Assembly (NCBI RefSeq): GCF_000014265.1
Contig: NC_008312.1
Span: forward strand, 6,570,001 to 6,602,000
Length of the DNA stretch: 32,000 nt
From: Trichodesmium erythraeum IMS101
GTDB taxonomy: Bacteria > Cyanobacteriota > Cyanobacteriia > Cyanobacteriales > Microcoleaceae
Direction of reading: 5' to 3'
A program made the translations under genes and the position numbers. Positions 1 to 29,810 of the stretch are shown piece after piece. The notes under the pieces were generated by a model that saw nothing but the letters and a program-made list of their open reading frames with translations, did not search any database and was not told the DNA's origin. How positions within the stretch are numbered: the stretch's first letter is position 1; every line of letters starts with the position of its first letter.

Positions 1-324
1 ATAGTAAGGTATCCATCAGGAAACGTAATATTTTCTTCTGATACTTGCTTAAACAATGACGGAAGTTATACCATAACAGGATTTGACTACACTAACACAA
101 GCGCTGAAAAATATTACGCTGTTGGTGAGTACGATAAAATGCTGAGATACCTTTTTAAAGATAAATTCCTTCGTGAATACAAGGTGTTAGGTTATCTTTC
201 GAGAGAACTTTTGGATCCTAACAGGACTAAGCCCTTAAAGGAAGTCGAAGTCTACATAAATAGCAAAATAATTACATTCGGTGGTTTCCCCGCAGCTATA
301 GAGGAATATTCTATTGCAGCATAA
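1..324 (+). CDS. hypothetical protein, 3' end (ORF enters from the left window edge)
   Basis: Frame 1 is open from nt 1 to TAA at 322-324, so the Met at 139 in the track is internal. A hairpin plus T-run follows at 356-387. No recognisable motif. Confidence 0.5.
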   Translation: MVRYPSGNVIFSSDTCLNNDGSYTITGFDYTNTSAEKYYAVGEYDKMLRYLFKDKFLREYKVLGYLSRELLDPNRTKPLKEVEVYINSKIITFGGFPAAIEEYSIAA

Positions 325-355
325 ATCCTAATTCAACTAAATAATTGAACAACAG

Positions 356-387
356 AAAGCTTGTACCGATTTTGGCACAAGCTTTTT
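356..387 (+). terminator. intrinsic terminator candidate
   Basis: aaagcttgtacc (356-367) pairs with ggcacaagcttt (374-385) at 11 of 12 positions around a 6-nt loop, and runs into ttttt (383-387). It lies 32 nt after the stop at 324. Confidence 0.6.
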
Positions 388-408
388 GTCGTAAAGCAAC
401 TACTAACA

Positions 409-885
409 ATGTATCAATTAGCAGAGAAAAAAGCAACTATGATTACCGATGAAGAAGTATTTGAAAGCATAAACAAAGATTTCAAGCAGAACACAGGTTT
501 CTTTGTGTCTGTTATAAAGTGTGGTACTGAATACCTGAGAAGTGTAGATTACGAGAACTCAAAGCTAAAAAACCGCTTAGAGTTTCCTACAAATCTTGTA
601 AAAATAAGGGTAATAGATTCTCCCATAAATATAATAGAAAGTAACCAATTAGCGAACGCGCTAAACATTTTTTACTTTGAAATAGACTACCAGACAAACA
701 GGTATTCGTGGGAGGAAAACAGGGAACGTTCTACAGAAAATTTTGTAAAGCTTTTTGAGAAAATAGATAAACACCTATTTGATACGATAGTAAAGAAAAG
801 AGCGAACGTAGCCTTTCTAATGTCTCACAAAGTAGCTAAGATATCCTTTAAAACAAGGTTTTTCGGGCTTATAACTCGTTTATGA
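409..885 (+). CDS. hypothetical protein (about 158 aa)
   Basis: The track ORF 361-885 starts at a TTG inside the terminator stem. The first in-frame ATG is at 409 (MYQLAEKK), with an alternative at 439. The stop overlaps the next start as ATGA (882-885). Confidence 0.55.
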   Translation: MYQLAEKKATMITDEEVFESINKDFKQNTGFFVSVIKCGTEYLRSVDYENSKLKNRLEFPTNLVKIRVIDSPINIIESNQLANALNIFYFEIDYQTNRYSWEENRERSTENFVKLFEKIDKHLFDTIVKKRANVAFLMSHKVAKISFKTRFFGLITRL

Positions 886-1466
886 CCTACGAGTTTAAGA
901 TGTCAGAGTTTGACCCTGAGATTGACTTAAAATACATAGGTTATTTAGCTTTAGCCTACGACAAAAAGGAAGGAAAACCTGTCTCCTCCCCAAACGACAT
1001 TCTAGTAATAGAGCAGGAAATTAGGGATGTCTCAAGACGCATAAACTATAGAAACACAGAAATCCCCATAGAAAACCTTGTATCAAACATAATCCCGGGC
1101 TTCACATCAGAGTGGGGTATCGAGAAAAAGTCAAGGGTAATTGAAGATGTGTTACTTGGAGTACCTATTAACCCAATATGGGTTGTATCTCTTGACACAT
1201 ACGATGAGGATCGGTTTATAAAGATTATTACTGGAGAAGAAGTCGTAATGGCATTGAGCGATTTTATTTGTAATAAGTTTTCTTTGTTTGGAATGAAACT
1301 AATACAAAGCTCAAAAGGTGTAAAATATCAAGATTTCTCAGTGCAAATGCAGAGGAAAATTACCAGGTCAACTGTCAGGCTTTTAGAACTAAACCCACGA
1401 GTCGAAGGCAAAATCCTGGCATACTTACGCAAGTCAAACGCCTATGGAGTAAATAATGCCTGTTGA
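882..1466 (+). CDS. minimal ParB/DUF262-like protein, degenerate (DGxxR position reads TGEEV)
   Basis: KSRVIEDVLLGVPINPIWVV...IITGEEVVMALSDFICNKFSL aligns with the neighbouring paralog and with the DUF262 N-terminal pattern (LIdSil.g.PiP.i...DGQQR...F). ATGA overlap upstream and an 11-nt overlap downstream. Confidence 0.6.
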   Translation: MTYEFKMSEFDPEIDLKYIGYLALAYDKKEGKPVSSPNDILVIEQEIRDVSRRINYRNTEIPIENLVSNIIPGFTSEWGIEKKSRVIEDVLLGVPINPIWVVSLDTYDEDRFIKIITGEEVVMALSDFICNKFSLFGMKLIQSSKGVKYQDFSVQMQRKITRSTVRLLELNPRVEGKILAYLRKSNAYGVNNAC

Positions 1467-1917
1467 ACTAACAAAGCCTTGGAACATAGACGAAATACAC
1501 TACTGTTGGATAGAATGGCTAATTGAAACGCCTTACACAGAACCAGCAGTAGACTTTGACAACGATGAGAAGTCTAGAGTTATTGAAAAAATTTTCCTTG
1601 GAATTCCCATCGGTCCAATAACCGTAGCACCATTCTCAACAAAGGATTGTAACAAAATAATAGTTGACGGCGCAAAAAGAGTAAAAGCTATAAAAGACTT
1701 TTGTGCTAACAATCTAAAAATGTCTGGACTTCAGGCCTTGTTTAGCCTAAACGGCGCTACTTACCTTGACTTATCAGAGGAACAAAGGTTTGAGTTTAAA
1801 TGTTCTATTATTCACATAGTAAAGCTTGAAGAACATGATGAAGACGCCATAAACTACGTTTGTTCTAGTAACCCAGGCAATAGCCACTGGCTAAAACATG
1901 GTGCTCCGCATGAATAG
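1456..1917 (+). CDS. minimal ParB/DUF262-like protein (retains D-G-x-x-R: IVDGAKRVKAIKDF)
   Basis: KSRVIEKIFLGIPIGPITVA...IIVDGAKRVKAIKDFCANNLKMSGL matches the ParB/sulfiredoxin-fold DUF262 core. Clear paralog of 882-1466. Confidence 0.6.
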   Translation: MPVELTKPWNIDEIHYCWIEWLIETPYTEPAVDFDNDEKSRVIEKIFLGIPIGPITVAPFSTKDCNKIIVDGAKRVKAIKDFCANNLKMSGLQALFSLNGATYLDLSEEQRFEFKCSIIHIVKLEEHDEDAINYVCSSNPGNSHWLKHGAPHE

Positions 1918-1937
1918 GTAGTGCTTTAGGTAAAACA

Positions 1938-2378
1938 ATGACTGAAGAATTAATCAACCTAACATGGAAAAGTGTAAGTGATATTAACAACCCAGACAAT
2001 CCAAAAAGGAGAGGTTGGTTAATACCATTGGATGACTTGGATGAAATAAAGCGAGGAACTTACTGTAACAAAACAGTAGTACTAAAGCTGGATAACTTAA
2101 ACCCTCAACAGATAGTTTTAAGCGACTACATGGAGAGTAAGGACAGGGTAAAACTAAGAGAGACCCAGGAGCTAACTCATTGGGGAAAAGAGTACAAACT
2201 ACGCCCTATAATTTACAGAAAGCCGAAAAACTATTTCCCTAAAACAGAGCATGAGTTACCAGCAGATTTTTTATCAGCAAGAGGAGTAATAAAACGTGGA
2301 GAAGTTTATGTAGCTTTTATTTACCAAACGTCAATTAAAAGAATATCAACAATGAATTTGTTTACTGTTTTAGAATGA
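1938..2378 (+). CDS. hypothetical protein (146 aa)
   Basis: ORF in the same orientation, 20 nt after the previous stop. No recognisable motif. Confidence 0.5.
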   Translation: MTEELINLTWKSVSDINNPDNPKRRGWLIPLDDLDEIKRGTYCNKTVVLKLDNLNPQQIVLSDYMESKDRVKLRETQELTHWGKEYKLRPIIYRKPKNYFPKTEHELPADFLSARGVIKRGEVYVAFIYQTSIKRISTMNLFTVLE

Positions 2379-2425
2379 TAGTATGCGATGCTTCCCATGA
2401 ATAGGCGATATCTATTTATTTAAAA

Positions 2426-2462
2426 ATGGCAATGTAATGTAACAAATGTATAGCATTGCCAT
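2426..2462 (+). terminator. hairpin between sub-operons (possible terminator or attenuator)
   Basis: Perfect 9-bp stem atggcaatg (2426-2434) with cattgccat (2454-2462) and a 19-nt loop. There is no strong T-run, so this is a weak call. Confidence 0.3.
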
Positions 2463-2550
2463 TAAAATCATTGATTCTAATCATCCTGTATATTTTATCA
2501 GGAAAGCTTTTTGAGAATTTTGCATTACTATTCTGAGCACCCATGTTTTT

Positions 2551-2946
2551 ATGAAAACTGAACCAATTAAATGCAATGTTATTGGCCTTTACAATAAGGG
2601 AATAGCATTGCTTTTTTCAAAACAAGATTATGACAATTTGTTTGAGGGCGATCGCCTAGACGAAGCCTTAAATAAAGGTCTTAGCCTGGAAATAGACAAC
2701 GACGTAACAGGCGCGAGAATAAATGGATATGAAGCCACTGAGAAAATAGCAATCAACGAGCACTTAAGGTGGCTTGACGTAGCAAATTCAGAGTATAAGA
2801 TTCTTTGCAACGTTTCGCAACAAGTGGGTAACATTAAATTGCTAGGCAAATGTAAACTTGACTGCAACGTTGAAATGAGACTTCCAAAGGAAATGCTTAT
2901 TTGCGTTTACTACAGCATACTTGAGTGTGAAATGTTTGAGGGGTAA
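2551..2946 (+). CDS. hypothetical protein, tandem paralog A (131 aa)
   Basis: N-terminus MKTEPIKCNV and C-terminus GKCKLDCNVEMRLPKEMLICVYY. The first 30 nt are nearly identical to the start of the next gene. Confidence 0.6.
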   Translation: MKTEPIKCNVIGLYNKGIALLFSKQDYDNLFEGDRLDEALNKGLSLEIDNDVTGARINGYEATEKIAINEHLRWLDVANSEYKILCNVSQQVGNIKLLGKCKLDCNVEMRLPKEMLICVYYSILECEMFEG

Positions 2947-2951
2947 TTTTT

Positions 2952-3350
2952 ATGAACACTGAACCAATTAAATGTAATGTATTAACTGAAGATGACCTTG
3001 ACCCACAAGCTGGGTTTGTATTTTCAGTTGAAGAATACAACAAAGTTTTTAACGTAACCTTTGACTGTAAGAAGGTTACTTTAGAAGTAGACGGAGCGAT
3101 CAGAAATGCAACATTAGAATCTTACAAGCTTGTGAATGAAACGGAAGTTTTCACCCATAGGCGTGAGCTATTTATTTCTAATTCAAAAGAGCCAGCGACA
3201 CACGTAGTTGAATTGTACGAAGGCGCAATATATCGTGTGGGTAGTTGCATGTTCAGTTGCGAGGAAATTTTAATTGAGCCAGAGCCAATAAACATCTATA
3301 TATACTACACAGATGAAGAGCTTTACAATAAAAGAAAAAGCAATGAATAA
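2952..3350 (+). CDS. hypothetical protein, tandem paralog B (132 aa)
   Basis: N-terminus MNTEPIKCNV and C-terminus GSCMFSCEEILIEPEPINIYIYY. Lies 5 nt after paralog A. Confidence 0.6.
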   Translation: MNTEPIKCNVLTEDDLDPQAGFVFSVEEYNKVFNVTFDCKKVTLEVDGAIRNATLESYKLVNETEVFTHRRELFISNSKEPATHVVELYEGAIYRVGSCMFSCEEILIEPEPINIYIYYTDEELYNKRKSNE

Positions 3351-3771
3351 TAAGGTATATCAGTGCAACATAATTATTGAGCATGAAAGGTCTTGGGAAT
3401 GGTTTCAGCGAAACGAGAATCCTAATGGGAAGATATCTTATGAAGCTGGGTGGGCTTTCTTAATAGACGATTACAGGGAAGTGTTTGATGACAATTTTTC
3501 AAAAACTATTCTTGTATCTTTAAGTGGAGAAAGCCCTAACAAAACAAAAATCAGCAACTACGTGGAAGGAAGGAAAAGAATAGTCACTTATCACACACAG
3601 CACTTACGAGTTTGCGGATATGAAGACAAGGTTAACTCTATAGTCTGTTTTCAAGAAGGAAATCTTGAAATGGTAGGCACATTTGAGTTTAAGTTTTGCA
3701 ATGAAAGTAGCGATTGGAAAAAAATAAACCTTTACGTATACATACCAGAATACTACGATAAAAATGTCTAA
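3343..3771 (+). CDS. hypothetical protein, tandem paralog C (about 142 aa)
   Basis: Preferred start is the ATG at 3343 (MNNKVYQCNI), which mirrors the xxxPIKCNV N-terminus of A and B and overlaps the upstream stop as ATGAATAA. The track start at 3313 would overlap by 38 nt. C-terminus is GTFEFKFCNESSDWKKINLYVYI. Confidence 0.55.
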   Translation: MNNKVYQCNIIIEHERSWEWFQRNENPNGKISYEAGWAFLIDDYREVFDDNFSKTILVSLSGESPNKTKISNYVEGRKRIVTYHTQHLRVCGYEDKVNSIVCFQEGNLEMVGTFEFKFCNESSDWKKINLYVYIPEYYDKNV

Positions 3772-4108
3772 TGAAATGAAAACCTACGAACTAAGTGTAG
3801 ATAGTAGCATGGGCTGGTACATAAAAAACCAGGTAAAGTGGATGAAAGTCTCTGACTTAACTCCCGATGACTACGAAGAGCTAAATTCAAACTCAAGGTT
3901 ATTCTTAATAGCTTACAAAGAAAGAATATTCAAGTTAACTTATACTTTAGTTCAAGAATTTTTCAAAATAGAAAAGTTTGACGACGGAACTCTTTATCTG
4001 TGGAGTTTAAGTGGTTATAAGTTTAATAAGGAACACAGAACTGCATATATAACCGCTTTAGAGATAGAGGATTGGAGAGTTGAGGACATCATAAGCTCCT
4101 ATAGCTAA
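3764..4108 (+). CDS. hypothetical protein (114 aa)
   Basis: 8-nt overlap with the previous stop (ATGTCTAA), indicating translational coupling. No motif recognised. Confidence 0.5.
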   Translation: MSNEMKTYELSVDSSMGWYIKNQVKWMKVSDLTPDDYEELNSNSRLFLIAYKERIFKLTYTLVQEFFKIEKFDDGTLYLWSLSGYKFNKEHRTAYITALEIEDWRVEDIISSYS

Positions 4109-4111
4109 TTA

Positions 4112-4297
4112 TCACCCCCATCGTAGCCAACTACTTTGGGGATTAAACAGTAACAATGCCATGAAACAAATAATTGTTAAGCTTTTTCCAAGTAAAGTCC
4201 ATTTTCTAGATAGTGCAGACTGTCTATAAGTACCACAAGATGATGAAAAAAGACTAAACGAAACTGCAACCCATATAGGGAGAAATGTTTTGGTCAT
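4112..4297 (-). CDS. possible small membrane protein (61 aa, two hydrophobic segments)
   Basis: Minus-strand ORF that fills the 228-nt gap between plus-strand genes. Hydrophobic segments are FLPIWVAVSFSLFSSSC and LTIICFMALLLF. It could be spurious. Confidence 0.25.
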   Translation of the reverse strand: MTKTFLPIWVAVSFSLFSSSCGTYRQSALSRKWTLLGKSLTIICFMALLLFNPQSSWLRWG

Positions 4298-4336
4298 TAA
4301 TGCTGTAAAAATATAACAAAGCTATAAATAAAAACA

Positions 4337-5470
4337 ATGCAAGACTGGAAAACAAACTTGTTAAACAAAATAGTAGAGAAATACGTAAATAACTCTAATG
4401 AGTGGGTGGAGTTAGAGTTTGATTTAAACAAAGTTTTAGAGTTAATAATAGTTTCTAACAATTTTTACGGCAAAAGTAGCCAGGAAAGGGGAATTTCTGT
4501 ATCTAAATATTTAAAGACTATAGGTGCAGATGAAATTAGCAAGTATTCAACGTATTATACTGTCGAAGAGTCTTACTCAATAAACCTACGCAAGCCAAGC
4601 AGGTTAAAATATTTTAACCCAAGTACTTGGCTTGAGCTGGCTTACTGTGCTGCAAACCCTCAGAACTATACAAAGGTAGAGCGAGTTAAGCGATCGCCGT
4701 CACCTAAAGTAATAGTGTTTTATTCTTACAGGGATTCAGGAGATAAAACCACAAGTGTAGCAATTACAGGCTTAAAACTGGTTGAAAAAGGCTATAACGT
4801 TGCACTGATGGATTTAAACCTAGAATCTCCAGGTCTAAGTGCCTTGATTAACCAAAAAGAATTGCCGAAAAAGGGTTTTGTAGATTATTTCTACGACAAA
4901 TCTTTTGGGAAAGTTGATGTCGAAGTTTCAATAGACCAAACATTTTTTGAAGTAAAAACTAAATTTGAATGGGCAGGCGGCAACCTGTTTGGCTTTTACC
5001 CAGGAGAATTATCGCCAGACTACACGTGTAAGTTAGAATACATTAACCCGCAAGTGGTTCTAGACGACAATGAAACACTCTGGTCTGTTCTAAAAAAGGA
5101 GGTATATGAACATTTAGACTTAGACTTTATACTAATAGATTCTGCTAGCGGTTTGAGTAAGTGGGCAGCGTTGTTACTAACACAGGCAGCAGACGAGGCA
5201 TTAATTTTTACTGATACCAGTGATAATAGCATTAATGGAACTAATTTAATATTAGAGGCCATTGATGTACTAGGCTTAAAGAAAAAAATAGTCCTTTCCC
5301 TTTTAGAGTTTGTCAACAAAGACAAGGCGATAGAAAATGCCTGGGAAAAAATTAATTTCAGTGTAAAAAGAGAGGATGAATTTTTTGTAGTTCCGCATTT
5401 TTCCTTAAACAATTATACAAATATAAACCAAATATATTCTAATATAGCAAGATTCATATATTCAAACTAA
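4337..5470 (+). CDS. ParA/MinD-like ATPase of the FYSYKGGVGR type, with variant P-loop and a ~120-aa N-terminal extension
   Basis: KVIVFYSYRDSGDKTTSVAITGLKLVEKGYNVALMDLNLESPGLS matches the FYSYKGGVGRT...DWDLEAPGL pattern of KGGVGR-motif variant ParA-like ATPases. Here KGGVGR is replaced by RDSGDK. ILIDSASGLS is Walker B-like. Confidence 0.65.
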   Translation: MQDWKTNLLNKIVEKYVNNSNEWVELEFDLNKVLELIIVSNNFYGKSSQERGISVSKYLKTIGADEISKYSTYYTVEESYSINLRKPSRLKYFNPSTWLELAYCAANPQNYTKVERVKRSPSPKVIVFYSYRDSGDKTTSVAITGLKLVEKGYNVALMDLNLESPGLSALINQKELPKKGFVDYFYDKSFGKVDVEVSIDQTFFEVKTKFEWAGGNLFGFYPGELSPDYTCKLEYINPQVVLDDNETLWSVLKKEVYEHLDLDFILIDSASGLSKWAALLLTQAADEALIFTDTSDNSINGTNLILEAIDVLGLKKKIVLSLLEFVNKDKAIENAWEKINFSVKREDEFFVVPHFSLNNYTNINQIYSNIARFIYSN

Positions 5471-5540
5471 AAATGATTTTATTTTACAAAAAATTGGGTA
5501 TTTATTATTATGAAAAAACTTGAATTATTTTAATTTAAAA

Positions 5541-5958
5541 TCTATGACAGTCCTAACCTCCATGACAGACTACCCACTAAAATATGACAAACCCTCTAAA
5601 AAGTCTGTCATCCTATAGCAGTATAAGCTTGAGGGTGTTTTATGACGCGATGACAGACCTATAACCAAGTTAGTTCAGTTTTATATTTTCTCTAAAATAT
5701 TCAAATATTTTTAACTCAGCGTTTTTTTTTGAGAGAAATCCTAATTTTTTTTCTAAATGCCTTAAACACCTGTAAATATAAGAAATATAGGTTAAAAAAT
5801 AGTGTTTCAATTTTTTTTCCATCGGGAGTTAGGATATAGCGCGTCATCGCGTCATAAAACCACCTCAAATCTATATTAATCTAGGATGACAGACTTGTTA
5901 GTAGGCTTGTCATATTTTAGGCAAAGTATGTCATATTTAGTTAGGCTTGTCATAGATC
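5541..5958. repeat. large imperfect palindrome: two ~120-bp inverted arms with mirrored ATGACAG/CTGTCAT boxes around a 177-bp AT-rich core
   Basis: Left-arm boxes are at 5544, 5562, 5584, 5605 (inverted), 5642 and 5650. Right-arm mirror boxes end at 5953, 5934, 5913, 5892 (inverted), 5855 and 5847. The 13-mer aagtctgtcatcc (5601-5613) is the exact reverse complement of ggatgacagactt (5884-5896). Confidence 0.85.
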
Positions 5959-6046
5959 ATTTACTTGTGATAGTTCTCAGAGAGAAAAAGCCTATCTTTT
6001 CATAAATAGATAGCTTAAAATAAAAAAAATGATAGCAAAAAATATG

Positions 6047-6074
6047 TTGACTTTTTGCTTATTTGTAATATAAT
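6047..6074 (+). promoter_or_regulatory. near-consensus sigma70-type promoter
   Basis: TTGACT (6047-6052), a 16-nt spacer, then TATAAT (6069-6074). Confidence 0.4.
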
Positions 6075-6489
6075 ATAGTTATTAAGGTTAAATTCTACGG
6101 ACGTATTTATGCTTTATTTTTAACTGGTTCTAACTCTTACTTTTTTACTAGCTATTGATTTCTTATTAACTTTTATCATCCATTAAATAATCGACAAGTG
6201 GCTTTGATTTTTTCTGAGCTACTTTTCTATATTTATACTACAATTATAAATAGTAGTAATAATAGAAATATAAGTCTAATGCCAATATCTTGGGAGTCTA
6301 ATCTTACATACTTAAAGCTCGGTAAAAACCTTATACCCTTAACTAAAGACGACAACGAGCCAGCCAAAGTGTATATAAGTTTTAGAGGCACTACGGTCAC
6401 GTCAAAACCAAAATATCCTGACAGAGCAATAAGAGCTAAAGAAAAAGATGGAGGTGATTTTTACAACTCATCTACTACTTCCTAAAAAT

Positions 6490-7222
6490 TTGTAATCATA
6501 GGAAGAACTTAGTTGCCAAGTTTCATCACCAACTACTTCTAAAACTTGTTGATGATATTCCAACAAAGTTAGGTGGAGTCTTACACTAATATAAGTTATA
6601 AGTAGTTGATACACATTACAAATGTTTGTAGATATTTTGTTCATTTTTCACATCCGGAGCGCTAATGGTGCTTTATCTAAAATTGCATGAGGAGGTTGAG
6701 TCAGCAACAAACGTGCAAGAGCAACCTGCTGTTGTTATCCCATGAAAAAACATGCTCCCGATCTTCGATCGCGCCTAAACCACTAAATCTTTTAGTTAAG
6801 TCTAGTAGGTCAACTTTTGTAAATCTTTAAAACAAAAGACCCCAGCTATTATATTTGGGAATTTGAGCAAGTATCAGATGTAGTATTAGAAATAGTCTCC
6901 TTAGTTGGGTAGTAAATTTGAAAATTATGTGGAAATGGGAGTAGAGTACTATGCAGTGTTGGAAGCGTTGCAAATGTTAGGTGAATATTTTCACTTGAGT
7001 CTATAAGTTGGAAGCGAGTGGTGATCAGCAAATGGCCGAAACTTGGTTAGAAAAACTCTGGTTGGGGTTGACTTTATGATCAGGAAAATTTGAGGGTAAG
7101 CAAGATATTTGGTTGTGTTGGTGCGATATTGAGGTGAATGTCATGCTGGTGCCGAAGGTGCGAACCAAGAGAAATTTAAAAAAGAGCTGGCTTGACAATG
7201 TGCTGAATGGGAAAAGCTGCAA
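6490..7222 (-). pseudogene. decayed ABC exporter ATP-binding domain (fragmented, boundaries fuzzy)
   Basis: Minus-strand translation around 6740-6660 gives FFMG*QQQVALARLLLTQPPHAILDKAPLAL, which is the LSGGQ signature plus Walker B region with an in-frame stop. Flanking frames show weaker NBD-like strings with frameshifts. Confidence 0.45.
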
Positions 7223-7387
7223 AAGGAGTCTACTTTAACTGAAGTTAGCAGAACTTGAGGCGAGGTTGCGTGATTTTGGTATGGTAGGTAAATATTTATT
7301 TTACAGATACTTGTGGTATATTTAATAGTATTTGACTACAATCAATTTTTGTAAATATTTTGTCGTTAAGTAATTTTATTGCTGAAT

Positions 7388-7486
7388 ATGATATCTAAAA
7401 TGAAAATAGATAAAACAATAAAAACACCTGCTCTTGATATTACTCATTTAATTATAGAGGATGAAATTCCAGTAGATAATTTTTAA
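7388..7486 (+). pseudogene. Uma2-family (DUF820) endonuclease N-terminal remnant (32 codons)
   Basis: MISKMKIDKTIKTPALDITHLIIEDEIPVDNF* resembles the conserved N-terminal E-D-G-x-P-V-D-N stretch of Uma2 proteins. It is truncated after 32 codons. Confidence 0.3.
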
Positions 7487-7621
7487 TCTGATCAACTGCA
7501 GGAATTTAGCTTTGGCTGATCAATATAAGTTTCATAATTTTTGTGAAACTTGATTTATAAGTGGGTAAAAATTACCGTCAAAATATTAAAGAACTAAGAA
7601 TAGCAAAATTATTGATAAACA

Positions 7622-9505
7622 ATGGAAAAAAAATCAAAACGCGATCGCGGAAGAATTATCACAACTTCTGGACTGAAAAAATTAAATGAAGCTATTGAAG
7701 AGTGGAAACAGAAATACAACCTTAGAGGTACTCTGGCAGAAATTGAGGCAGAGTCAGGAGTTGGTTCAGATACTATTAGTAAAATTCGACAAGGACGAGT
7801 AGGTGCAGACCTCAGCAAAATTCAACAACTTTTTGCTGCTTTTGATCTAACTTTGGATGAAACTGACTACCGCTCCGGAAAACAAAGCTCATCTGAAATG
7901 GACTCAGAACCACTATCACAACTACTACCACTTTTAAACGACGAACAAATAGTCACTAAAAATAGTTTCCAAATTTTCATCAGTTATAACAGGCAAGACC
8001 CGGATCAAGAATTGGCGCGACAGTTTGAAACAGCCCTCGCTGCTGCTGGTCATCAAGTATTTATGGCAGGAGACCATATTCGTCTGGGAGAAAATTGGTT
8101 TCGTCGAATTAATATTGAATTGAAACGCTGTGACTATTTGTTGTTATTTTTGCCTCCTCAGTCAGCACAAAGTGAGTTGCTCACCTATCAAGTGCAACTT
8201 GCCAGAGAATTACAATTTTCCCGACCAGAGCGTAAACCTGTAATTTTGCCAATTCGGGTAGGTTTTTCTCTGACTCAACCTCTCAACCATGACTTACGTG
8301 GTTATCTGTATCGCATTCAACAACGGGAGTGGCGATCGCCGGAAGATACAATTATTATTCTTAAAGAAGTTTTGACTCTTCTAGCTGCTCCACCAGGTAA
8401 TATTGCCCTGGAAATAGAGGAGAAAAAAGAAATTTCTCTGAGTGAAGAAATTAGCAGTATCGCCTCTGCCAACTTCCCCCCTTTACCCTCTGCAGAACCA
8501 GAAATACCAGGGGGACAAATTGATGTAGCATCTAATTTTTATATTGAGCGTCCTCCCATAGAAGAACGTTGTTATCAAACTATCTTACAACCGAGTAGTT
8601 TGATTAGAATTAAAGCACCTCGACAGATGGGAAAAACTTCTTTAATGGCAAGAATTTTACATCATGCTGCATTCCAAGGATATCGAACAATACCTTTGAG
8701 TTTTCAGTTAGTAGATAAAGAAGTTTTTAGTAATCTTGAAAAGTTCTTAAAATGGTTTTGTGCTTATGTGGGAAGGGAGTTACGTTTGCCAAATCAATTA
8801 GATGATTATTGGGATGATATTTTTGGTAGTAAAGTTAATTGTAAGGATTATTTTGAGAAATATTTATTAGCACAAATAGATCATCCTTTAGTCTTAGGTT
8901 TAGATGAAATTGACCGAGTTTTTCAATACCCTGATATTGCCGAAGATTTTTTAGGATTATTACGAGCCTGGCATGAAGAGTCAAAACGACGTGCTATTTG
9001 GAAAAAGTTGCGCTTATTAGTAGTTCATTCTACTGAGGTTTATATTCCTATGAATATTAATCAATCTCCTTTTAATGTGGGGTTGCCTATAGATTTACCA
9101 GAATTTAATCTCCCGCAAGTTAAGGACTTGGCATTCCGACATAATTTGAATTGGTCAGAGCAAGAAGTAGAGAAACTAATGGCAATTATTGGTGGGCATC
9201 CTTATTTAGTTAGGGTGGCATTATATCACATTTCTAAACAAGATTTGACTCTAGAAGATTTACCGGAAAATGTAATGAGTGAAACTGGAATTTATAGCGA
9301 CCATTTGCGACGACATTTGTGGAATTTAGAAGAATATCCAGAGTTAGTTGCAGCAATGAAAAATATAATTTCTGAAAATTTGAACGAACGTTTAACAGGG
9401 ATATTAGGTTTTAAGTTAGACAGTTTGGGTTTAGTAAAATGGCAGGGCAATAAATACCATCCCAGATGTGAGTTATATCGTCAATATTTTCAGGTTCATT
9501 TATGA
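7622..9505 (+). CDS. HTH - TIR - AAA_35 (STAND-like NTPase) fusion protein
   Basis: N-terminal HTH-like segment is TLAEIEAESGVGSDTISKIRQGR. TIR-like block is FQIFISYNRQDPDQELARQFETALAAAGHQVFMAG...CDYLLLFLPPQSAQSELLTYQV. AAA_35 block is FYIERPPIEERCYQTI...IKAPRQMGKTSLMARI with LVLGLDEIDRV as Walker B. Confidence 0.8.
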   Translation: MEKKSKRDRGRIITTSGLKKLNEAIEEWKQKYNLRGTLAEIEAESGVGSDTISKIRQGRVGADLSKIQQLFAAFDLTLDETDYRSGKQSSSEMDSEPLSQLLPLLNDEQIVTKNSFQIFISYNRQDPDQELARQFETALAAAGHQVFMAGDHIRLGENWFRRINIELKRCDYLLLFLPPQSAQSELLTYQVQLARELQFSRPERKPVILPIRVGFSLTQPLNHDLRGYLYRIQQREWRSPEDTIIILKEVLTLLAAPPGNIALEIEEKKEISLSEEISSIASANFPPLPSAEPEIPGGQIDVASNFYIERPPIEERCYQTILQPSSLIRIKAPRQMGKTSLMARILHHAAFQGYRTIPLSFQLVDKEVFSNLEKFLKWFCAYVGRELRLPNQLDDYWDDIFGSKVNCKDYFEKYLLAQIDHPLVLGLDEIDRVFQYPDIAEDFLGLLRAWHEESKRRAIWKKLRLLVVHSTEVYIPMNINQSPFNVGLPIDLPEFNLPQVKDLAFRHNLNWSEQEVEKLMAIIGGHPYLVRVALYHISKQDLTLEDLPENVMSETGIYSDHLRRHLWNLEEYPELVAAMKNIISENLNERLTGILGFKLDSLGLVKWQGNKYHPRCELYRQYFQVHL

Positions 9506-11855: not shown

Positions 11856-12941
11856 ATGTTTAAAAGTCTAATAATTAAAAATTTCCGATGTTTTCAAGAA
11901 ATTACTATTGATAATATAGAACGAATTAATTTAATTGGAGGTGTTAATAATGTTGGTAAAACAGCTCTCCTGGAAGCAATTTTATTATTAAATAGTTTAA
12001 ATTCTATAGAAATTCCGTTTGAATTAAACTTTAATAGGGGAGTAATTCAACAACCAACTTTTGACATTGAAGAAATTTGTGAATGGTTATTTTATCAAAA
12101 ACAAATTGGTAAATCTATTAAAATTCAAACCATAGATGAAAATGGTGAAGAGAGAGAGTTGAAATTGAGTTTAGATAAAGCATTAAGTCCAAGATTATTT
12201 CCTTTAAGTTCAAAAACAAATAGCAGAAAAACTATCAAAGACTTAAAACTGGAGCTGAAAAAAGCAGGTCAAAAATTATTGGGTTTTACAGCATTTATAA
12301 CCATAGATAAAGAAGGAGAAATTAGGATAGAATTTCAGCAAGATGAAAAACAAAAAATTGAAGAAATACAACTTTTTTATCCTATTGTTTTTCATAGTAG
12401 TCGTTTAAAAGTTTCTTCAACAGAAAATGCAAAAGTGTTTAGTGATTTTGCACTAAAAAATGAACAAAATGAAATTGTAGAGATATTACAAATAGTAGAG
12501 CCAAGATTAAAACGTTTAGAAATTTTAGTCACTGGAGGAATACCTATTATTCATGGAGATGTTGGAGGAGATAATTTAATTCCTGTTGTATTAATGGGAG
12601 AAGGAATGGGAAGGCTATTATCTATGATTTTATCTATCATGAATACTCGAGGAGGAATAGTATTAATTGATGAAATTGAAAATGGCATACATTATTCAGC
12701 TATGGAAAAAGTTTGGCAGTCTATTAATATAGCAACTAGAAAGTTTAATACTCAACTTTTTGCGACTACTCATAGTTATGAATGTATTCATGCTGCTCAT
12801 CGAGCATTTTCCGACTCTGAATCATATAATTTTCGTTATTTTAGACTAGAGAGAGAAAAAGAAACTAATTCTATTAAGAGTTTAGTTTATGACAAGGATA
12901 ATATTGAAACTTCTTTAGGACTTAGCTGGGAGATGCGCTAA
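11856..12941 (+). CDS. ABC-type AAA ATPase (AAA_15/AAA_21-like)
   Basis: N-terminus is LIIKNFRCFQEITIDNIERINLIGGVNNVGKTALLEAI (Walker A). GIVLIDEIENGIHY is Walker B and D-loop, and FATTHS is the H-loop. Confidence 0.8.
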   Translation: MFKSLIIKNFRCFQEITIDNIERINLIGGVNNVGKTALLEAILLLNSLNSIEIPFELNFNRGVIQQPTFDIEEICEWLFYQKQIGKSIKIQTIDENGEERELKLSLDKALSPRLFPLSSKTNSRKTIKDLKLELKKAGQKLLGFTAFITIDKEGEIRIEFQQDEKQKIEEIQLFYPIVFHSSRLKVSSTENAKVFSDFALKNEQNEIVEILQIVEPRLKRLEILVTGGIPIIHGDVGGDNLIPVVLMGEGMGRLLSMILSIMNTRGGIVLIDEIENGIHYSAMEKVWQSINIATRKFNTQLFATTHSYECIHAAHRAFSDSESYNFRYFRLEREKETNSIKSLVYDKDNIETSLGLSWEMR

Positions 12942-13523
12942 ATGACTCATAATAAAAAAATTGAAAAGCCAAAGCTTATTATTGGTGAAGGAAAGGAAGA
13001 TTTCCTTTTTTTTTATTCACTAATTAAACATTTAAAAATTAATGATATTCAAGTGGATTTTTATAATGGAAAGAATAACCTTAATAATTATTTTAAAACT
13101 TTGCATTTAAAACCAGGTTTTTCTAATTTGTGCTCTTTAGGGATTACTAGAGATGCTGATCAATCGTTCGATACTGCTTCTCAAAGTATTGATAATTCTA
13201 TTATACAAAACCAATTAAATGAGAAAAAAAATTTAACCATCAAAAAATTTATATTTCCAGACAATAGTTCTTCAGGAATGTTAGAAGATCTTTGTTTAAG
13301 AGCGATTGATGATTCTGATATTGGTTGTATTACAGATTTTTTTCAGTGCATTAATAAAAACAAAAATATAAAACCAACTGAATTTTCTAAGGCTAAAATC
13401 CACGCCTGGTTGTCTAGTCAAGTAAAACCTGATAAACGTCTAGGTGAAGCTGCTCAAGCAGGATATATTGACTGGAATCACCCCAACTTTAACCCCTTGA
13501 TAAATTTTATAAAAAGTCTTTAA
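12942..13523 (+). CDS. DUF3226/Toprim-like small protein, partner of the ATPase
   Basis: The start abuts the upstream stop (TAAATG). LIIGEGKEDFLFF provides a Toprim-type Glu and LGITRDADQS provides DxD. The C-terminal SKAKIHAWLSSQVKPDKRLGEAAQ is as I remember the DUF3226 family. Confidence 0.6.
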   Translation: MTHNKKIEKPKLIIGEGKEDFLFFYSLIKHLKINDIQVDFYNGKNNLNNYFKTLHLKPGFSNLCSLGITRDADQSFDTASQSIDNSIIQNQLNEKKNLTIKKFIFPDNSSSGMLEDLCLRAIDDSDIGCITDFFQCINKNKNIKPTEFSKAKIHAWLSSQVKPDKRLGEAAQAGYIDWNHPNFNPLINFIKSL

Positions 13524-15825: not shown

Positions 15826-16105
15826 GGGACGACCAATGCCGTGTGTTTTAATCATTGGCTTGAGCATCATCCCTATTCCAGAACTCAATCCCCATTCCCT
15901 GTTGATTATGGATAACGCTCCCTTTCATCAGAAGAAAGAAATCCGGGCGCTCGCAGCTCTTGATGGGCACAGTGTTTTGTTCTTAGGGCCCTACTCACCG
16001 GACTTCAACAAGATTGAAGAAGATTTGGCCATTCTCAAAAAGCAACGGATATATGCTCCACCAGAAACAACACTGGATGACATTGTTAGACTGTACGGAA
16101 CTTAA
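15826..16105 (+). mobile_element. IS630-family transposase C-terminal fragment (frameshifted)
   Basis: TNAVCFNHWLE..., then after a frame change LLIMDNAPFHQKKEIRALAALDGHSVLFLGPYSPDFNKIEE. This matches the DNAxxH and PPYSPDLNPIE motifs. The N-terminal two thirds are missing. Confidence 0.7.
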
Positions 16106-16110
16106 TTGTA

Positions 16111-16902
16111 ATGACTATAGATATTAAACCAGCTCCTACAGCTCCAGATGGTGAAATTATGATGATCAAAGAGAATCACTTTTTAGATATATTTGATAGT
16201 GCTGATATGAGTTTATCATTTTTTGGGATTTGTATAAAAAATGCACCCTTATTAATTTTTGCTATTAGACTTTTAACTGCTGGATATCCTGCCAGAATTA
16301 AAGATAGAAATTTAGGGGCAAAATTACTAAATAAAGTCAAGGAAGTTGTGAGAGGTAATTATGATGTTAATACTTTTTTGAGTCAGGTTGATAATTGGTT
16401 TAATTTTCAAGCTAATTCTATTAATAGATTGCCAGAAAAAGTTCAGAACCAAAGGTTAACTGAACTGAGAGATTATAGAGATTGTTTGGTGGCTTTTTTT
16501 GCTAAATTTCAACCTAAAAGTTTGAATGATTGGAAAACAGAAATAGATAAGATTTTTGATGAATCAACTACTACTAAAAAAATTATAGATTTATATACTA
16601 TTCATAGTGGTAAAGGTGGAGAAGGACATTATACATTTATTATTTATCCTGAGAATATGCCTATAGAATTTGAGAAGCAAAGCACAGAAGAAAGGCAGCA
16701 GGAACAACACATGATATACGTTGCTTTAACCCGCTGCCTGACTCGTGCTAAGGGTGGTATTTTGTGGTTGGTGTTGGAAGGGAAAAAAGATACTGTAAAT
16801 TATCCAAAATGGCTACCACATGACTACCGGAAACTATGGAAAGATGATAAAGGTGAGTATTTTGAACTTGATTTTGAGGAATTGGAAGATATTGAGTTTT
16901 AG
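16111..16902 (+). pseudogene. UvrD/RecD-like helicase C-terminal fragment (N-terminus removed)
   Basis: IDLYTIHSGKGGEGHYTFII...QEQHMIYVALTRC matches helicase motifs V and VI of the UvrD_C type (TIHxxKGxE...YVAxTRA). There are no Walker motifs, and it starts right after the IS630 fragment. Confidence 0.5.
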
Positions 16903-20704: not shown

Positions 20705-21190
20705 TTACTCTCCCACTGACATCAAGACTTGATTCATTAATCTCTCTGATAGATACATTCCAGACAACCTTAACTGTTCTAAAACAGGACGTGCTTCTGA
20801 AATTACTCCACGTTGTTTGGCAGTTAAAACTAAACCCAAAGTACCTCTCACCGGAATTCCTAACGCTTGGGCACAACGACGAGCAGCTAAATCATCAATA
20901 ATCACTTCTGTATTTGGGTGATGATACCCCCAACTCAAAACCTCTGATTCTCCTGCTCCTAAATCCCAACTTTGAATCACAGCAGGAATAGCAGGAGTTT
21001 GAGTCACAACTAACCAATCTGTTTGAGCTAACATTTGGGCAGTTACATCTGTGTTTCCGTAGGCTTGAATTTCTGTAGCTACTGCTTGAGGAACAATAAT
21101 TTTTGGACTCAGCATTTGCAGGAAGTTGAGCAAATTTGCTTGAGTCAAAAAAATCAAAGGTGAAGTATTTACTGCCGGAAATTCAGCCAC
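20705..21190 (-). CDS. DUF3368-family PIN-domain toxin
   Basis: NTSPLIFLTQANLLNFLQ...IIVPQAVATEI...LGAGESEVLSWG...VIIDDLAARRCAQALGIPVRGTLGLVLTAKQRG is the typical DUF3368 pattern. The GTG start overlaps the antitoxin stop (GTGGCTGA). Confidence 0.8.
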   Translation of the reverse strand: MAEFPAVNTSPLIFLTQANLLNFLQMLSPKIIVPQAVATEIQAYGNTDVTAQMLAQTDWLVVTQTPAIPAVIQSWDLGAGESEVLSWGYHHPNTEVIIDDLAARRCAQALGIPVRGTLGLVLTAKQRGVISEARPVLEQLRLSGMYLSERLMNQVLMSVGE

Positions 21191-21434
21191 GCTCTAACTC
21201 CCGTTGCAAATCATTAAAATCAACATTAAACACATCTATTTTTTCCCTTGCTAAACTAGCGAGAAAATCTCGACGGTTTAACCCGGCAACTTGAGCTGCT
21301 TTTTCTTGAGAAATTTCCCCTTTTTGATACCAATATATAGCTGCTGCTAAACGCATATCCCGAACAAATTCTTCAGGAGCTAAACGGCGGGCAGAAAAAA
21401 TTTCTTCTGGTAAATTAATAGTAATTTCTGACAT
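21183..21434 (-). CDS. UPF0175-family antitoxin
   Basis: ITINLPEEIFS...DMRLAAAIYWYQKGEISQEKAAQVAGLNRRDFLASLAREKI fits the UPF0175 pattern. It has an 8-nt overlap with the PIN gene. Confidence 0.8.
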   Translation of the reverse strand: MSEITINLPEEIFSARRLAPEEFVRDMRLAAAIYWYQKGEISQEKAAQVAGLNRRDFLASLAREKIDVFNVDFNDLQRELERG

Positions 21435-21533: not shown

Positions 21534-24500
21534 CTAAAAACCCAATCCTTTTTTCCTTGCCAATATTCCCTCTAACCAACGTTTCTCTTCCACATTCTGA
21601 GGATATACCCGCAATAGGGCATCTGCTAAATTCCAAAATCTGGGGTCTTTGCCTACTCCCTCCTCTACTAATAGTCGTTTCACTGCTTCGCTACGTCCTG
21701 TTTTGTGTAACAACATGGTTTGATGTATCCGGTCTAATACGGTTTTGCCTATCTCAGCGATCGCTATATCTGCTTCTACTTCTATTTCAGTTTCTTTTTC
21801 TGGCAAAATACCTTCTAAACTTAGTTGTTTTGGAGTCTTACTTTTGCGTTTTTTAGTATTAGTAGTAGGGGCAACTTTTCCGATTAAATAATGACTCCTT
21901 TCTTGTACTGGTAAAAGTCTGGCTTTATTACCTTTTATTTCTACTAAATGGGTGAGGTTTTCTAGGTGCGCTCCTAAACCTTGGGCGATTTTGCGGGCGG
22001 TGTCAAACTCTAAGGCAAAACCTGTAGATTTTTGATTTTTGCTGGCGGGGGTGTCTTCCTCATCTTGGTCTGACTCTGTTTCTGTTGCTGATTCGGTGCT
22101 GCCAGTAGAAAGCGTCCATAACCAAATGACTGTGAGACGAGCGTCTGCTTCCAGGTTATTAGTGTCAGCTTCCGAGAATATCTGTTTTAAGGCTTCGTTT
22201 GCTACTGTTCCCCAGAGATATTCTAGGTATTCGCCCAAAGTGACTGGTTGCCCATTGACTTTTTCCACGCTGGAGTAACGAGAGAATATTTCTAGGGCGG
22301 GTCCGATACAAGCAAAGATAGCATCAGCACCGACTATACCTTCTGATGTCAGACGTGGCATCCAGTCTTGGATGCGTTGGGGTAGCTCTTGGATGATGTC
22401 GCGCCAGTCGCCGATATTGTTATTGTTGCGGGGTCGGCAAACAAGATGGATGGATGAGGCGAGGGCAGCAGAGTTTTGGGCGCGGGGTCTGTTGCCCCTT
22501 TCTGTGTCTATTGCCCAGGATGCGGTTATTTTCCAACCAGCATCTATCATTGCTTGTAGTTGAGCTTCCCATCCAGCAGTTGATTTGTGGGCAAAGACAA
22601 TAATACCTATTCCGTCTGAGGATATGATGCGACATCCTTCTGCCATTGCTTTTGCCATCTGGGTTTCAAACCATTTGCCGTTTTTGTGTGGGTATCTTTT
22701 GGAATCCCATCCTGCCATTTCACAAATTTCATCATCTTTCGGAGTAGTTTCACTAGAAAATAAGTTGGGGTAGGTTTTGTTTAGAGTTCTTTTTAGCCAG
22801 ACATAGAAAAAGTCGGATAAGTCAGCGTAGGGTACAGCGTTGTAATAAGGAGGATCGGAAAAGAAGCATTGAGTAAAGTCGTCTGGTAGGGGGTGACTCG
22901 CTGCATTTGCTTGTTGGGTTTGACCGGGGTCGGGTAATAATGATGCTTTGATGACGGATAAAACCCAACTGACAGCACCTTGCCAGTATCCGTCAGAACC
23001 TCCCACTAGATTTGTTTCTCCAAAATCCCAAAGCATGGGTAAAGCTTGCCTAGCGAAAACACCGTCTATTAACTCTCGACTGTTATTCCACTTTGATAGA
23101 GAGCAAAACTGATTAGTGCAGCGATCAACTGCCAAAGCCAAACAAGTCTGAATAGCGATCGCCAACCTTTCATCCTCATTACTAGCCAATTTTTTTCCCA
23201 CTTCCTTAACTAACCTCACCAAAGTAGTTAAAGCTAAAGCTTGACGAGAAGAAAATAAACTTCCCCAGGTGTTATGTCCGTAAATGGGCGCATTAAAAAC
23301 ACCGCTCATAACTGGCACCGGTTCATCCGGCACCAAACTCAACTCCCCACCATACTCCAACTTCCGCCTTGCCAACTCCTCACCTGCCATTCTCACCGCT
23401 TCCAAATCTCTCTCATTGGGCAACCGATAAAACCTACCCTTCACCTTCTCCCTAGTCGTCACCACACAAAACAACCGGGCATCATCCGCACCCCCACCCC
23501 TTGCTTGCAACTGCTTTCGCACCGAAGCCACCGGAGTCGTAAACCCACAACAAGGACAAGTCGCTGAACCTCGTTTCACCGTTCCATCCCCAACATCTTT
23601 CCCTTTCACCTGCTCCACAATCTCAAAATCAACTCGCTTTTCCTCCTGCCGAGGAATCAACCGTAACGCCACCGACCGATTCTTTTTCTTTGCCAACCAC
23701 AAACTCCGCATCAAAGGAACCTCCGCCCCACATCCAGGCCCCTCACAAACAATCGTCCGCGCCCAAAGATAAGCAATAGGTGTTTCCACATCCCCATTCT
23801 TAAGTGTTGCAGCAGATTTAGGATAAAACTCCCCCAATTCCTTTTCTGCCTCCTGCTTTATCCATTCTCCCCACTTACGCACCTCATCCGCCAAAGTTTG
23901 CCCATACTTAGGAATATATTCCAACACAACCTTATTTAACAAAACCGCCACCGGATTCAAATCAGAGGCAAAAGCATCTGCTCCTACCCGCAAAGCCTCC
24001 AAAGGAATCGCACCTCCACCCGCAAAAGAGTCAAAAACTACGGGTTTTGTATCAGTAATTCCTCCTAAAGAATAATGACTAATTTCTGTTAGTTTACGAC
24101 TGGTTTGTAAATAATCTGGATGTGTAGAATTATCCCAATTAGCAAAGTCAGCAATAAAGTCTAATAAGCGATAACGGAGTATGTTTAAATGTTCTATTTT
24201 TTCTGGATTTAACTGATTTTTAGGTTTAGCTAAAACTTGCCATTTTTTTAGGTTTGCTGTGGAGCCATGATTATCTAAATTTTTATCAACTATTTTGGCA
24301 AAACCATTAATAACTTTTGCAGCCTCAACCCGAAACAATTCCGGGCAATTATCATCAACTGGGTCTAACCAAAGAGCAGCACAAATTACAGCCCGACAAG
24401 CAGCCAAAGGTCGTCTTGCCCACCAAATATGTAAGGTCGAAATATGACCGTGACGAATTGATTTTTCTCGTCTAGCATGGGCAGAGATTTGTTTAATTGG

Positions 24501-29399: not shown

Positions 29400-29810
29400 A
29401 CACCTAAATTTAAAAGTGCAGACCATATTTTAACCAAAGTAAATAACATGACTAGGGCGAATAAATTAATCGGACTTTCCCCATTATTTGACCAAAGAAT
29501 TGTAGAACTAAGTTTAGAAATTCTACCAAAATATAAATTATCCGGCGCAGATGAAAAAGCAGTATTAAAACAAGCAGTAGCAGACCTATTACCAGAGAAA
29601 ATATTAACCCGTCCCAAAAGTGGAATGATGGTACCTGTTAACTTTTGGTTTCGTAAAATATGGCAGCGTCGAACCAAGAATTTATTGTTAAGTAAAAAAG
29701 CAGCGATCGCTCCCTATATCAATCAAGATTTAATCAAAGATTGGTTAAATTATCAGGGAGATACTTGGAGGCGTTATGGAATTAAACTTTGGTTATTAGT
29801 TAGCCTATAA
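29400..29810 (+). pseudogene. asparagine synthase family gene, C-terminal fragment
   Basis: SPLFDQRIVELSLEILPKYKLSGADEKAVLKQAVADLLPEKILTRPKSGMMVPVNFWF is the C-terminal synthetase-domain pattern. The track ORF 29355-29810 borrows its start from IS1-end sequence. Confidence 0.65.

Follow-up and report, generated by a model that had tools for sequence, protein, structure and literature searches.

The palindrome and its surroundings

The window analyzed in this work (32,000 nucleotides of Trichodesmium erythraeum IMS101, contig NC_008312.1, positions 6,570,001 to 6,602,000) carries at 5540-5957 an imperfect palindrome, located between a gene for a ParA/MinD-like ATPase and the truncated start of a LamG-domain gene (Table 1). 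Comparison with related contigs shows this palindrome to be one copy, PAL-B in the following, of a cis-acting module that is conserved in a hitherto undescribed phage-like element of Trichodesmium. The structure was delimited by repeat search, MAFFT alignment and self-BLAST. The arms are found at 5540-5654 and 5843-5957, can be extended to 5657 and 5840, and are 116 nt long and 78% complementary. The best inverted repeat in the 5300-6200 interval scores 90.6 bits, vs. 25.9 ± 4.2 in 100 shuffled sequences (maximum 42.8), and the 418-bp palindrome proposed in an earlier, sequence-only reading of the locus is therefore real.

ATGAC boxes occur 12 times in the 420 bp of the palindrome; the window averages 0.74 per 420 bp, and no other stretch of that length has more than 4. 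Order and strand of the boxes are >>><>> in the left and <<><<< in the right arm, the single inverted box being mirrored between arms, as the sequence-only reading had stated. The spacing of 18-22 bp reported with it holds for the outer boxes only: start-to-start distances are 18, 22, 22, 36 and 8 bp in the left arm, 192 bp across the core, and 8, 36, 22, 21 and 19 bp in the right arm. Similarly, the notion that boxes are more conserved than spacers applies to the 5-nt ATGAC cores, identical in the two arms at 30/30 residues vs. 38/55 (69%) in the spacers; box flanks match at 23/32 residues. The 13-mer GGATGACAGACTT is exact in both arms, as proposed, and belongs to an exact stretch of 15 nt, TAGGATGACAGACTT; further words shared exactly by the arms are GTTTTATGACGCGATGAC (18 nt) and CTAAAATATGACAA (14 nt). 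The interval 5661-5837 is the 177-bp core with long T-runs already described (T9 at 5722, T8 at 5745, T8 at 5811). It has 24% G+C, is asymmetric, and has no palindromy of its own. To the right of the palindrome, and directed away from it, lies a strong sigma-70-like promoter (TTGACT-16-TATAAT at 6047-6074, 11/12 match).

Table 1. Features of the palindrome and of the adjacent genes in the window
Feature	Position	Strand	Remarks
Two ParB-fold genes (DUF262 / phrog_2598 / NsnA-like)	882..1917	+	In the operon of the ParA-like gene; paralogues of the genes flanking PAL-A
377-aa ParA/MinD-like ATPase, KGGVGR-variant family	4337..5470	+	Upstream neighbour of PAL-B only
Left arm	5540..5657	+	Six boxes, pointing inward except L4; each box aligned with those of 15 other arms (7 related palindromes)
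Box L1, ATGACA	5544..5549	+	
Box L2, ATGACA	5562..5567	+	
Box L3, ATGACA	5584..5589	+	Local dyad with L4
Box L4, ATGACA	5606..5611	-	Inverted box of the left arm
Inner double box L5-L6, ATGACGCGATGACA	5642..5655	+	Boxes 8 bp apart, abutting the core; double box in 16/16 arms compared
Asymmetric AT-rich core	5658..5839	.	Homologous to the PAL-A cores, same orientation
Right arm	5840..5957	-	Mirror image of the left arm
Inner double box R6-R5, ATGACGCGATGACG	5842..5855	-	
Box R4	5886..5891	+	Inverted box of the right arm
Box R3	5908..5913	-	
Box R2	5929..5934	-	
Box R1	5948..5953	-	
Conserved right flank of the module	5990..6074	+	Ends in the sigma-70-like promoter
Truncated 5' end of a 524-aa LamG-domain gene	6279..6485	+	Follows the module in intact relatives

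Copies of the module in related contigs

Relatives of the element were recovered through the downstream LamG gene and a 253-aa gene; the two proteins have relatives at 52-69% identity, and the contigs encoding these are syntenic. The related contigs (L numbers) derive largely from marine metagenome assemblies, TARA included, and all were analyzed by self-BLAST and scanned for box clusters. The structure seen in the window resides at three genomic positions, and each genome of the phage-like element carries two or three copies. PAL-A fills the 660-740 bp that separate two small genes, at a distance of five genes downstream from the helicase gene (L132/L133, L139, L142/L143, L144-L147 = L151, L155, L157-L160). 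PAL-B follows the ParA-like gene (window, L114, L150, L152, L153). PAL-C lies between a ribonucleotide reductase (RNR) gene on the minus strand and a large polymerase-like gene (L144/L145, L155; right arm only in L142). The arms of PAL-C are 950-975 bp apart, and enclose a 54-aa open reading frame (ORF) and an SNase (PF00565) gene (L144 201-1383; L155 175-1405; L142 1-455). The product of the 54-aa ORF is acidic, and that of the SNase-family gene has a lipoprotein-like N-terminus; a stop codon interrupts the nuclease gene in L144, whereas L155 and L142 have apparently intact versions.

The box order of the window, with the same spacings, was found in 13 palindromes from at least five lineages and at the three positions. 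The spacings common to the copies are 17-18, 22, 22, 36 and 8 bp in the left arm, 171-193 bp across the core, and 8, 35-36, 21-22, 21 and 19-21 bp in the right arm. In a 5-way alignment the module is about 600 bp long and homologous throughout, from the left flank through both arms and the core to the right flank and the promoter (consensus TTGACT-16/17-TAT(A/T)AT). The right-flank block and the promoter are found to the right of every PAL-A copy; no outward promoter matching that of PAL-A and PAL-B was found at PAL-C. The PAL-A promoter is conserved as TTGACT-17-TATTAT (right sides at L132 5037-5160, L144 13198-13316 and L155 13200-13320), and is followed, directly ahead of the ribosome-binding site of the DUF262-like gene downstream, by a conserved hairpin with a T-run. 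The stem sequence of this hairpin is lineage-specific and the predicted stem is kept; it could be a leader/attenuator or a short RNA.

The 36.8-kb contig L144/L151 carries PAL-C, PAL-A and the ParA-like gene, and ends just short of PAL-B. L150 has the PAL-B module without PAL-A, L158 has PAL-A and no PAL-B module within the 6 kb examined, and the unit made up by palindrome and promoter has moved between two gene contexts. The phage genomes are mosaic in their replication genes as well: both modules of such genes reside in L144/L151, only the PAL-B type in L150 and only the PAL-A type in L158, over the stretches examined. The right arm of PAL-A in L144 features one extra 21-bp box unit (TTTTTAGCTATAGTCTGTCAT repeated, L144 13040-13090), indicating that box number can change by tandem duplication.

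Conservation of boxes and arms

TGAC is invariant at each box position across 16 aligned arms. The genes surrounding the module share about 70% nucleotide identity between L132 and L144, 76% between L132 and L142, and 85% between L132 and L155. Among L132, L139, L142 and L155, identity reaches 90-97% in the right and 82-92% in the left arms of PAL-A, over a background of 76-85%. Within one genome, left and right arm share only 73-76% identity. Since arms have diverged within a genome while orthologous arms are alike, the arms evolve as separate units, and their complementarity is not maintained. These data lend strong support to the earlier suggestion that selection acts on protein-binding sites, and not on a random hairpin.

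The site consists of a TGAC(A/G) core followed by genome-specific bases. The box flank is TGACAGAC at nearly all PAL-A and PAL-C boxes of L144, and TGACACGC at most outer boxes of L132, L139 and L155. In terms of the residues following TGACA, L144 has GAC at nearly all PAL-A and PAL-C boxes (AAC at one), L132, L139 and L155 have CGC at most outer boxes, L142 has C, T or G and then GC, and PAL-B is mixed. Co-evolution with one sequence-specific protein would give such a coordinated change over about 24 sites; alternatively, coordinated flanks may arise by homogenisation among the repeats. In the 5-way alignment a GTATAC-type dyad recurs in the 36-bp gap of each arm and in the core, which hints at a second factor. 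Overall, the comparison argues strongly that each arm is an array of six predicted sites for a sequence-specific DNA-binding protein, and that the two arrays face each other.

The copy in the window differs from that of L114 at 7 residues over 5540-5957 (1.7%, vs. 0.8% over the whole stretch shared by the two), none of them in a TGAC core. Though 12/12 box cores are intact, the surrounding element has been deleted and truncated, and PAL-B of the window is therefore probably an inactive relic.

The phage-like element and its remnant in the window

Residues 1-6478 of the window are 99.2% identical to the marine metagenome contig L114. Relative to the latter, 992 bp (L114 5547-6538) are deleted in the window at 874/875, and two genes have been fused thereby. 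The LamG gene, intact in L114, is cut after about 67 codons, and homology to the element stops at about 6478. The deletion and the LamG truncation mark 1-6478 as the decayed remnant of an integrated mobile element. Pseudogene-like debris is found at 6485-7600. The octamer GCGATCGC, the cyanobacterial HIP1 repeat, is present in 17 copies in the window, 15 of them to the right of about 6480, and the DNA on this side looks like host DNA. A 34-bp repeat (94% identity) at 2546-2579 and 2947-2980 precedes two adjacent genes of 131 and 132 aa, and is probably the trace of a tandem gene duplication in which the translation-initiation region was copied along.

The element is a phage-like element of Trichodesmium of an undescribed lineage. 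The related contigs encode a Dda/PIF1-like helicase, a DNA ligase, a class II RNR, ThyX, a thymidylate kinase, an HU-family protein and a Bro-N protein; no capsid or terminase gene was seen among those examined. A 1258-aa fusion protein of the element family combines Toprim, D5_N and DUF5906 (D5-type helicase) domains with a family-B polymerase (PolB), and a protein of about 1040 aa gives a faint match to the RNA-dependent RNA polymerase (RdRP) family; the two loci are at L138 8072-11848 (minus strand) and L144 1928-5059. The latter protein may be a YonO-like single-subunit RNA polymerase, judging from this match; it has no match in the phage collection, the sole collection compared. The polymerase part of the fusion is closest to the Nostoc/Anabaena phages A-1(L), N-1 and YongM (35-37% identity), and Nostoc phage A1, the nearest PolB relative (about 37%), has neither a comparable palindrome nor homologues of the operon proteins. 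Among the small proteins of the family, the best conserved (alignment A3, P0008-P0016; L114 2685-3446) is encoded just after the helicase gene. Inspected by eye, it shows a coiled coil at the N-terminus, an SAP/HeH-like motif, and a long acidic tail with D(Y/F)EGW at its end, which recalls the tails of phage single-strand-binding or adaptor proteins.

IMG/VR was searched with palindrome patterns and by protein-seeded scans, the LamG protein and the 253-aa family included, and no member of the family was found; a three-box pattern gave 91 matches, essentially chance ones. An unrelated viral contig picked up on this occasion, only because the search pattern selected ATGACA repeats, is L072 (IMG/VR uncultivated virus genome, UViG, 2808606664_000001). 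At 1228-2563 it features 20-bp iterons (CATGACAAAT / GGCTCAACATGACAAATAGA) in two opposed arrays around an ORF of about 490 bp, a similar design.

On the host side of the window, a defence island extends from 7622 to 28238. It includes a TIR + AAA_35 protein (7622-9505), an AAA_15/AAA_21 ATPase + DUF3226 protein (11856-13523), a UPF0175/DUF3368 pair (20705-21434), and a 1001-aa DUF1156 protein (21534-24539) adjoining an SNF2/NOV_C helicase (24822-28238), the last two DISARM-like in appearance. Fragments of DDE_3 (15836-16105) and UvrD_C (16111-16902) genes lie within the island, and an Asn synthase fragment (29355-29810) just outside it.

ParA-like and ParB-fold neighbours

The 377-aa ParA-like protein has a degenerate Walker A motif, RDSGDKTT (SYRDSGDKTTS), not of the deviant KGGxxK[ST] type. 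The families it matches best are the KGGVGR-variant AAA ATPase NF047398 (8e-28) and the PADLOC defence candidate PDC-M28B (7e-19), and in 5.8 billion proteins its relatives are limited to one 98%-identical cluster. The protein is also encoded on contig JAGGDU010000154.1, from an assembly of T. erythraeum (PMC9366434). The gene is absent from the PAL-A and PAL-C loci on the contigs examined.

PAL-A is flanked on both sides, in every lineage seen, by phrog_2598 / GmrSD_N (DUF262, ParB-fold) paralogues. A 309-aa protein of the PAL-B-type module (L114 6201-7130) joins in tandem a 'downstream'-type to an 'upstream'-type DUF262 unit, the two types which elsewhere flank PAL-A (L132 4044-4511 and 5172-5612). 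No recognisable DNA-binding domain, either helix-turn-helix (HTH) or ribbon-helix-helix (RHH), was found in the 150-aa DUF262-like proteins. The 'downstream' protein is 86% identical in L142 and L144 despite the different box flanks of these genomes, and is therefore unlikely to determine box specificity; no other candidate emerged from the co-variation of box type with flanking protein.

Possible functions of the module

Tentatively, the module is best read as the replication origin of the element, of the iteron type, with opposed arrays around an AT-rich unwinding region. According to this scheme, an element-encoded initiator, possibly the D5/SF3-type helicase part of the primase-helicase-PolB fusion or another partner, would bind cooperatively to outer boxes spaced by about two turns of the helix, and also to the double boxes on the inner side that abut the core; two opposed assemblies would form, and the T-tract core between them would melt. 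The model has a parallel in the origins of staphylococcal pathogenicity islands (SaPI), in which 6-12 iterons, half on each side of a central AT-rich region and in opposite directions, are bound by the self-loading, primase-associated Pri-Rep helicase (PMC9371898). The layout expected of such an origin, 6 + 6 opposed boxes around an AT-rich core, is present in 13 copies. The element, having its own primase-D5 helicase-PolB fusion, needs an origin, and PAL-A and PAL-B lie downstream of a helicase-led gene block. Core 60-mers of six copies rank at the 97th-99.9th percentile of instability within ±3 kb.

Architecture and replication genes thus make the iteron-flanked origin, one of three roles envisaged in the sequence-only reading, the best fit. 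A number of observations weigh against it. The stretches outside both arms are as unstable as the core. No initiator was identified, and the gene adjoining the module is never a recognisable Rep: the neighbours are ParA-like and LamG genes at PAL-B, DUF262-like genes at PAL-A, RNR and SNase genes at PAL-C. Helicase genes are 3-9 kb off, and the primase-helicase-PolB gene is on no contig with a palindrome. In three long contigs both skews, GC and AT, remain positive through PAL-A, a test which is weak for phage genomes. Spacers and core are conserved too and the GTATAC-type dyad recurs, pointing to further factors, and the ParB/DUF262-fold flanks and conserved promoter of PAL-A suit a partition or operator role equally. 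The heaviest objection comes from PAL-C, in which all box cores are kept in two lineages with the arms about 950-975 bp apart around genes. The arms evidently work without a fixed separation of 170-190 bp, a poorer fit to a simple double-hexamer origin. Confidence in the origin is kept low because of the missing adjacent initiator, the lack of a skew change, the unstable outer flanks and the spacing of PAL-C.

The variable distance between arms is easily accommodated if the module is a partition- or operator-type nucleoprotein site, the chief, though less likely, alternative, in which ParB/DUF262-fold proteins, or the ParA-like protein at PAL-B, would coat both box arrays. The complex, wrapped or bridged, would segregate or organise the genome, autoregulate the right-hand promoter, or both, in the manner of R1 parC or P1 parS. 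The constant association of PAL-A with DUF262 paralogues, the two further DUF262 genes and the ParA/MinD-like ATPase in the operon directly upstream of the window copy, and the strong conserved promoter with its leader after the right arm are in line with this possibility; a box spacing of about two helical turns suits cooperative binding to one face of the helix, and the HU/IHF-family protein of the element could bend the T-tract core. Yet the ParA-like gene is found at PAL-B only, and its product has the Walker A motif and the family matches reported above; the DUF262-like proteins lack a recognisable HTH or RHH domain, and the 'downstream' paralogue is 86% identical between two genomes with different box flanks. 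Moreover, no promoter overlaps the boxes, and PAL-C is without a matching outward one. As to the ParABS scheme, parA-parB linkage is not seen in all copies, while a ParB-fold gene does reside beside the site. Of the centromere suggested earlier for these proteins, the ParA part is thus weakened and the ParB part still alive. A bolder version, which we hold unlikely, takes the module as a non-origin cis-element of the phage, a portable pair of opposed six-site arrays bridged by DUF262/ParB-fold proteins at any distance from 170 bp to about 1 kb. The complex would enclose, silence or organise the AT-rich stretch or the nuclease gene between the arms, and site flanks and binding protein would change specificity together between phage lineages. 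Quite unlikely, too, is that the opposed arrays serve as another kind of phage cis-site, such as a pac-type site for a small terminase, a site for recombination or module exchange, or an enhancer-like 'homologous region' with a part in transcription as well as replication. Multiple dispersed copies per genome, their location at the borders of exchanged modules and the transfer of palindrome plus promoter between gene contexts would all be accounted for, and the pac site of P1 has sets of hexamers to either side of an IHF site at its centre. A genome with two or three pac sites would be unusual, however; no terminase gene was seen among the related contigs examined, and no cleavage or crossover point is apparent.

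The sequence-only reading had also proposed a miniature non-autonomous transposon. The module could in principle be a miniature inverted-repeat transposable element (MITE), or domesticated transposon ends of the Tn7 or Mu type, PAL-C being a longer version with cargo. The two to three copies per element, the constant pairing of convergent arms, with an interior that varies between them (about 155-190 bp, or some 950 bp where genes are enclosed), and the resemblance of the subterminal arrays to Tn7 or Mu ends go in this direction, and TGACA-containing repeats do occur in cyanobacterial Tn7-like ends. We regard this explanation as very unlikely and largely refuted. Target-site duplications were looked for at PAL-A, PAL-B and PAL-C and none was found, no direct repeat abutting the arms (the palindrome of the window is flanked by TTTAATTTAAA on the left and CATTTACTTG on the right); the termini are not TG...CA, as arms start with ATCTATGACA and end with TGTCATAGAT; no transposase was found nearby. 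Copies occupy orthologous positions, with homologous flanks, across about 30% divergence and with every box core intact, denoting selection at the level of the element rather than selfish turnover. Dozens of dispersed copies unlinked to the neighbouring genes, the mark of a plain MITE, were not observed, the source genome not having been scanned whole. No box cluster was found in the 25 kb of host DNA of the window. The exact 18-mer GTTTTATGACGCGATGAC has 12 matches in 185,579 species genomes and 17 in JGI metagenomes; all 29 are single, without extra boxes, and nearly all in high-G+C or non-cyanobacterial DNA, and are therefore chance hits, in collections which lack the source locus and say little on copy number in the source genome. 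By blastn, the window unit matched nothing in the phage collection and only a 40-bp AT-rich stretch of Spiroplasma among plasmids, and the L132 copy matched nothing in either collection. Arm distance would not matter, and asymmetric boxes in two opposed groups would be expected, if the arrays were a barrier to replication forks or transcription, a trap like opposed Ter sites. This is highly improbable: no Tus- or RTP-like gene was found, the conserved AT-rich core would be left without a reason, and we know of no precedent for multiple replication traps in one phage genome. Least probable of all is that the palindrome acts by secondary structure, as an RNA hairpin/terminator or a DNA cruciform, or as an invertible switch. 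The single-strand fold predicted for the unit is very stable (-83 kcal/mol, z = -13), and the core includes a weak hairpin followed by a T-run; but orthologous arms resemble each other more than the two arms of one genome do, the TGAC cores are where conservation is concentrated, Rfam gave no match, and the consensus fold of the core, with a single compensatory pair, reaches only -1.4 kcal/mol. The orientation of the core, identical in 24/24 contigs from independent samples, mostly excludes an invertible switch. A hairpin-telomere or protelomerase target was rejected, the 155-190 bp core being asymmetric, conserved in one orientation and devoid of a dyad through the centre.

Comparison with known systems

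The module shares with SaPI origins the 6-12 short repeats set half on each side of an AT-rich centre in opposed directions (12 boxes here, six per side, and a core of 24-34% G+C). The primase/self-loading helicase acting at SaPI origins is element-encoded, and the Trichodesmium element has its primase-D5-type helicase fusion. SaPI origins, in contrast, lie immediately 3' of rep, and the module has ParA-like or DUF262-like neighbours. It further differs from them in its arms of about 115 bp with fixed uneven spacing (18, 22, 22, 36, 8), one inverted box per arm and conserved spacers, and in its two or three copies per genome, one with about 950 bp and genes between the arms. There is no sequence similarity, and the origin role is in this case a proposed one.

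Opposed initiator sites flanking an AT-rich unwinding element, in the form of an imperfect palindrome, are known from archaeal oriC (inverted origin recognition boxes, ORB), from inverted repeats of Halobacterium set about an AT-rich stretch, and from herpes simplex virus (HSV) oriS/oriL, simian virus 40 (SV40) and papillomavirus origins. Box sequences, initiators and hosts are different, and these origins have fewer and longer sites, or a far more compact layout. In R1 parC and P1 parS two sets of short repeats flank a central region, bent or promoter-bearing, much as two sets surround a centre in the module, which likewise has ParA-like or ParB-fold genes nearby. R1 parC, however, has direct and contiguous repeats, and P1 parS spans about 80 bp. 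In the present case the Walker A of the ParA-like protein is degenerate, only one of three copies is linked to this protein, and the ParB-fold units are 150-aa DUF262-type proteins without a recognisable DNA-binding domain. Baculovirus homologous regions (hrs) are dispersed, repeat-rich, palindromic non-coding modules, multiple per genome and bound by viral protein. They are made up by tandem palindromes of about 30 bp, belong to eukaryotic viruses, and do not feature opposed arrays plus a core. Tn7- and Mu-like ends have multiple subterminal sites per end, inverted between ends, as the module does, which differs from them in having no TG/CA termini, target duplication or transposase, and in copies that are orthologous and under purifying selection.

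Significance

The palindrome is a well-defined and strongly selected cis-element, with 12 mapped predicted sites, and natural variants in specificity make the hunt for the binding protein feasible. It also marks a phage-like family unmatched in the IMG/VR scans and in the phage and plasmid collections searched, here physically linked to the chromosome of T. erythraeum. To our knowledge, no phage has been isolated for Trichodesmium, a globally important nitrogen fixer. If the two arrays were bridged by DUF262/ParB-fold proteins, the module would provide the first defined DNA target for the small DUF262/ParB-like proteins of phages, a large family (phrog_2598). If the module is an origin, it would give a handle on the replication of the element, and could seed replicon tools for a genetically intractable cyanobacterium.

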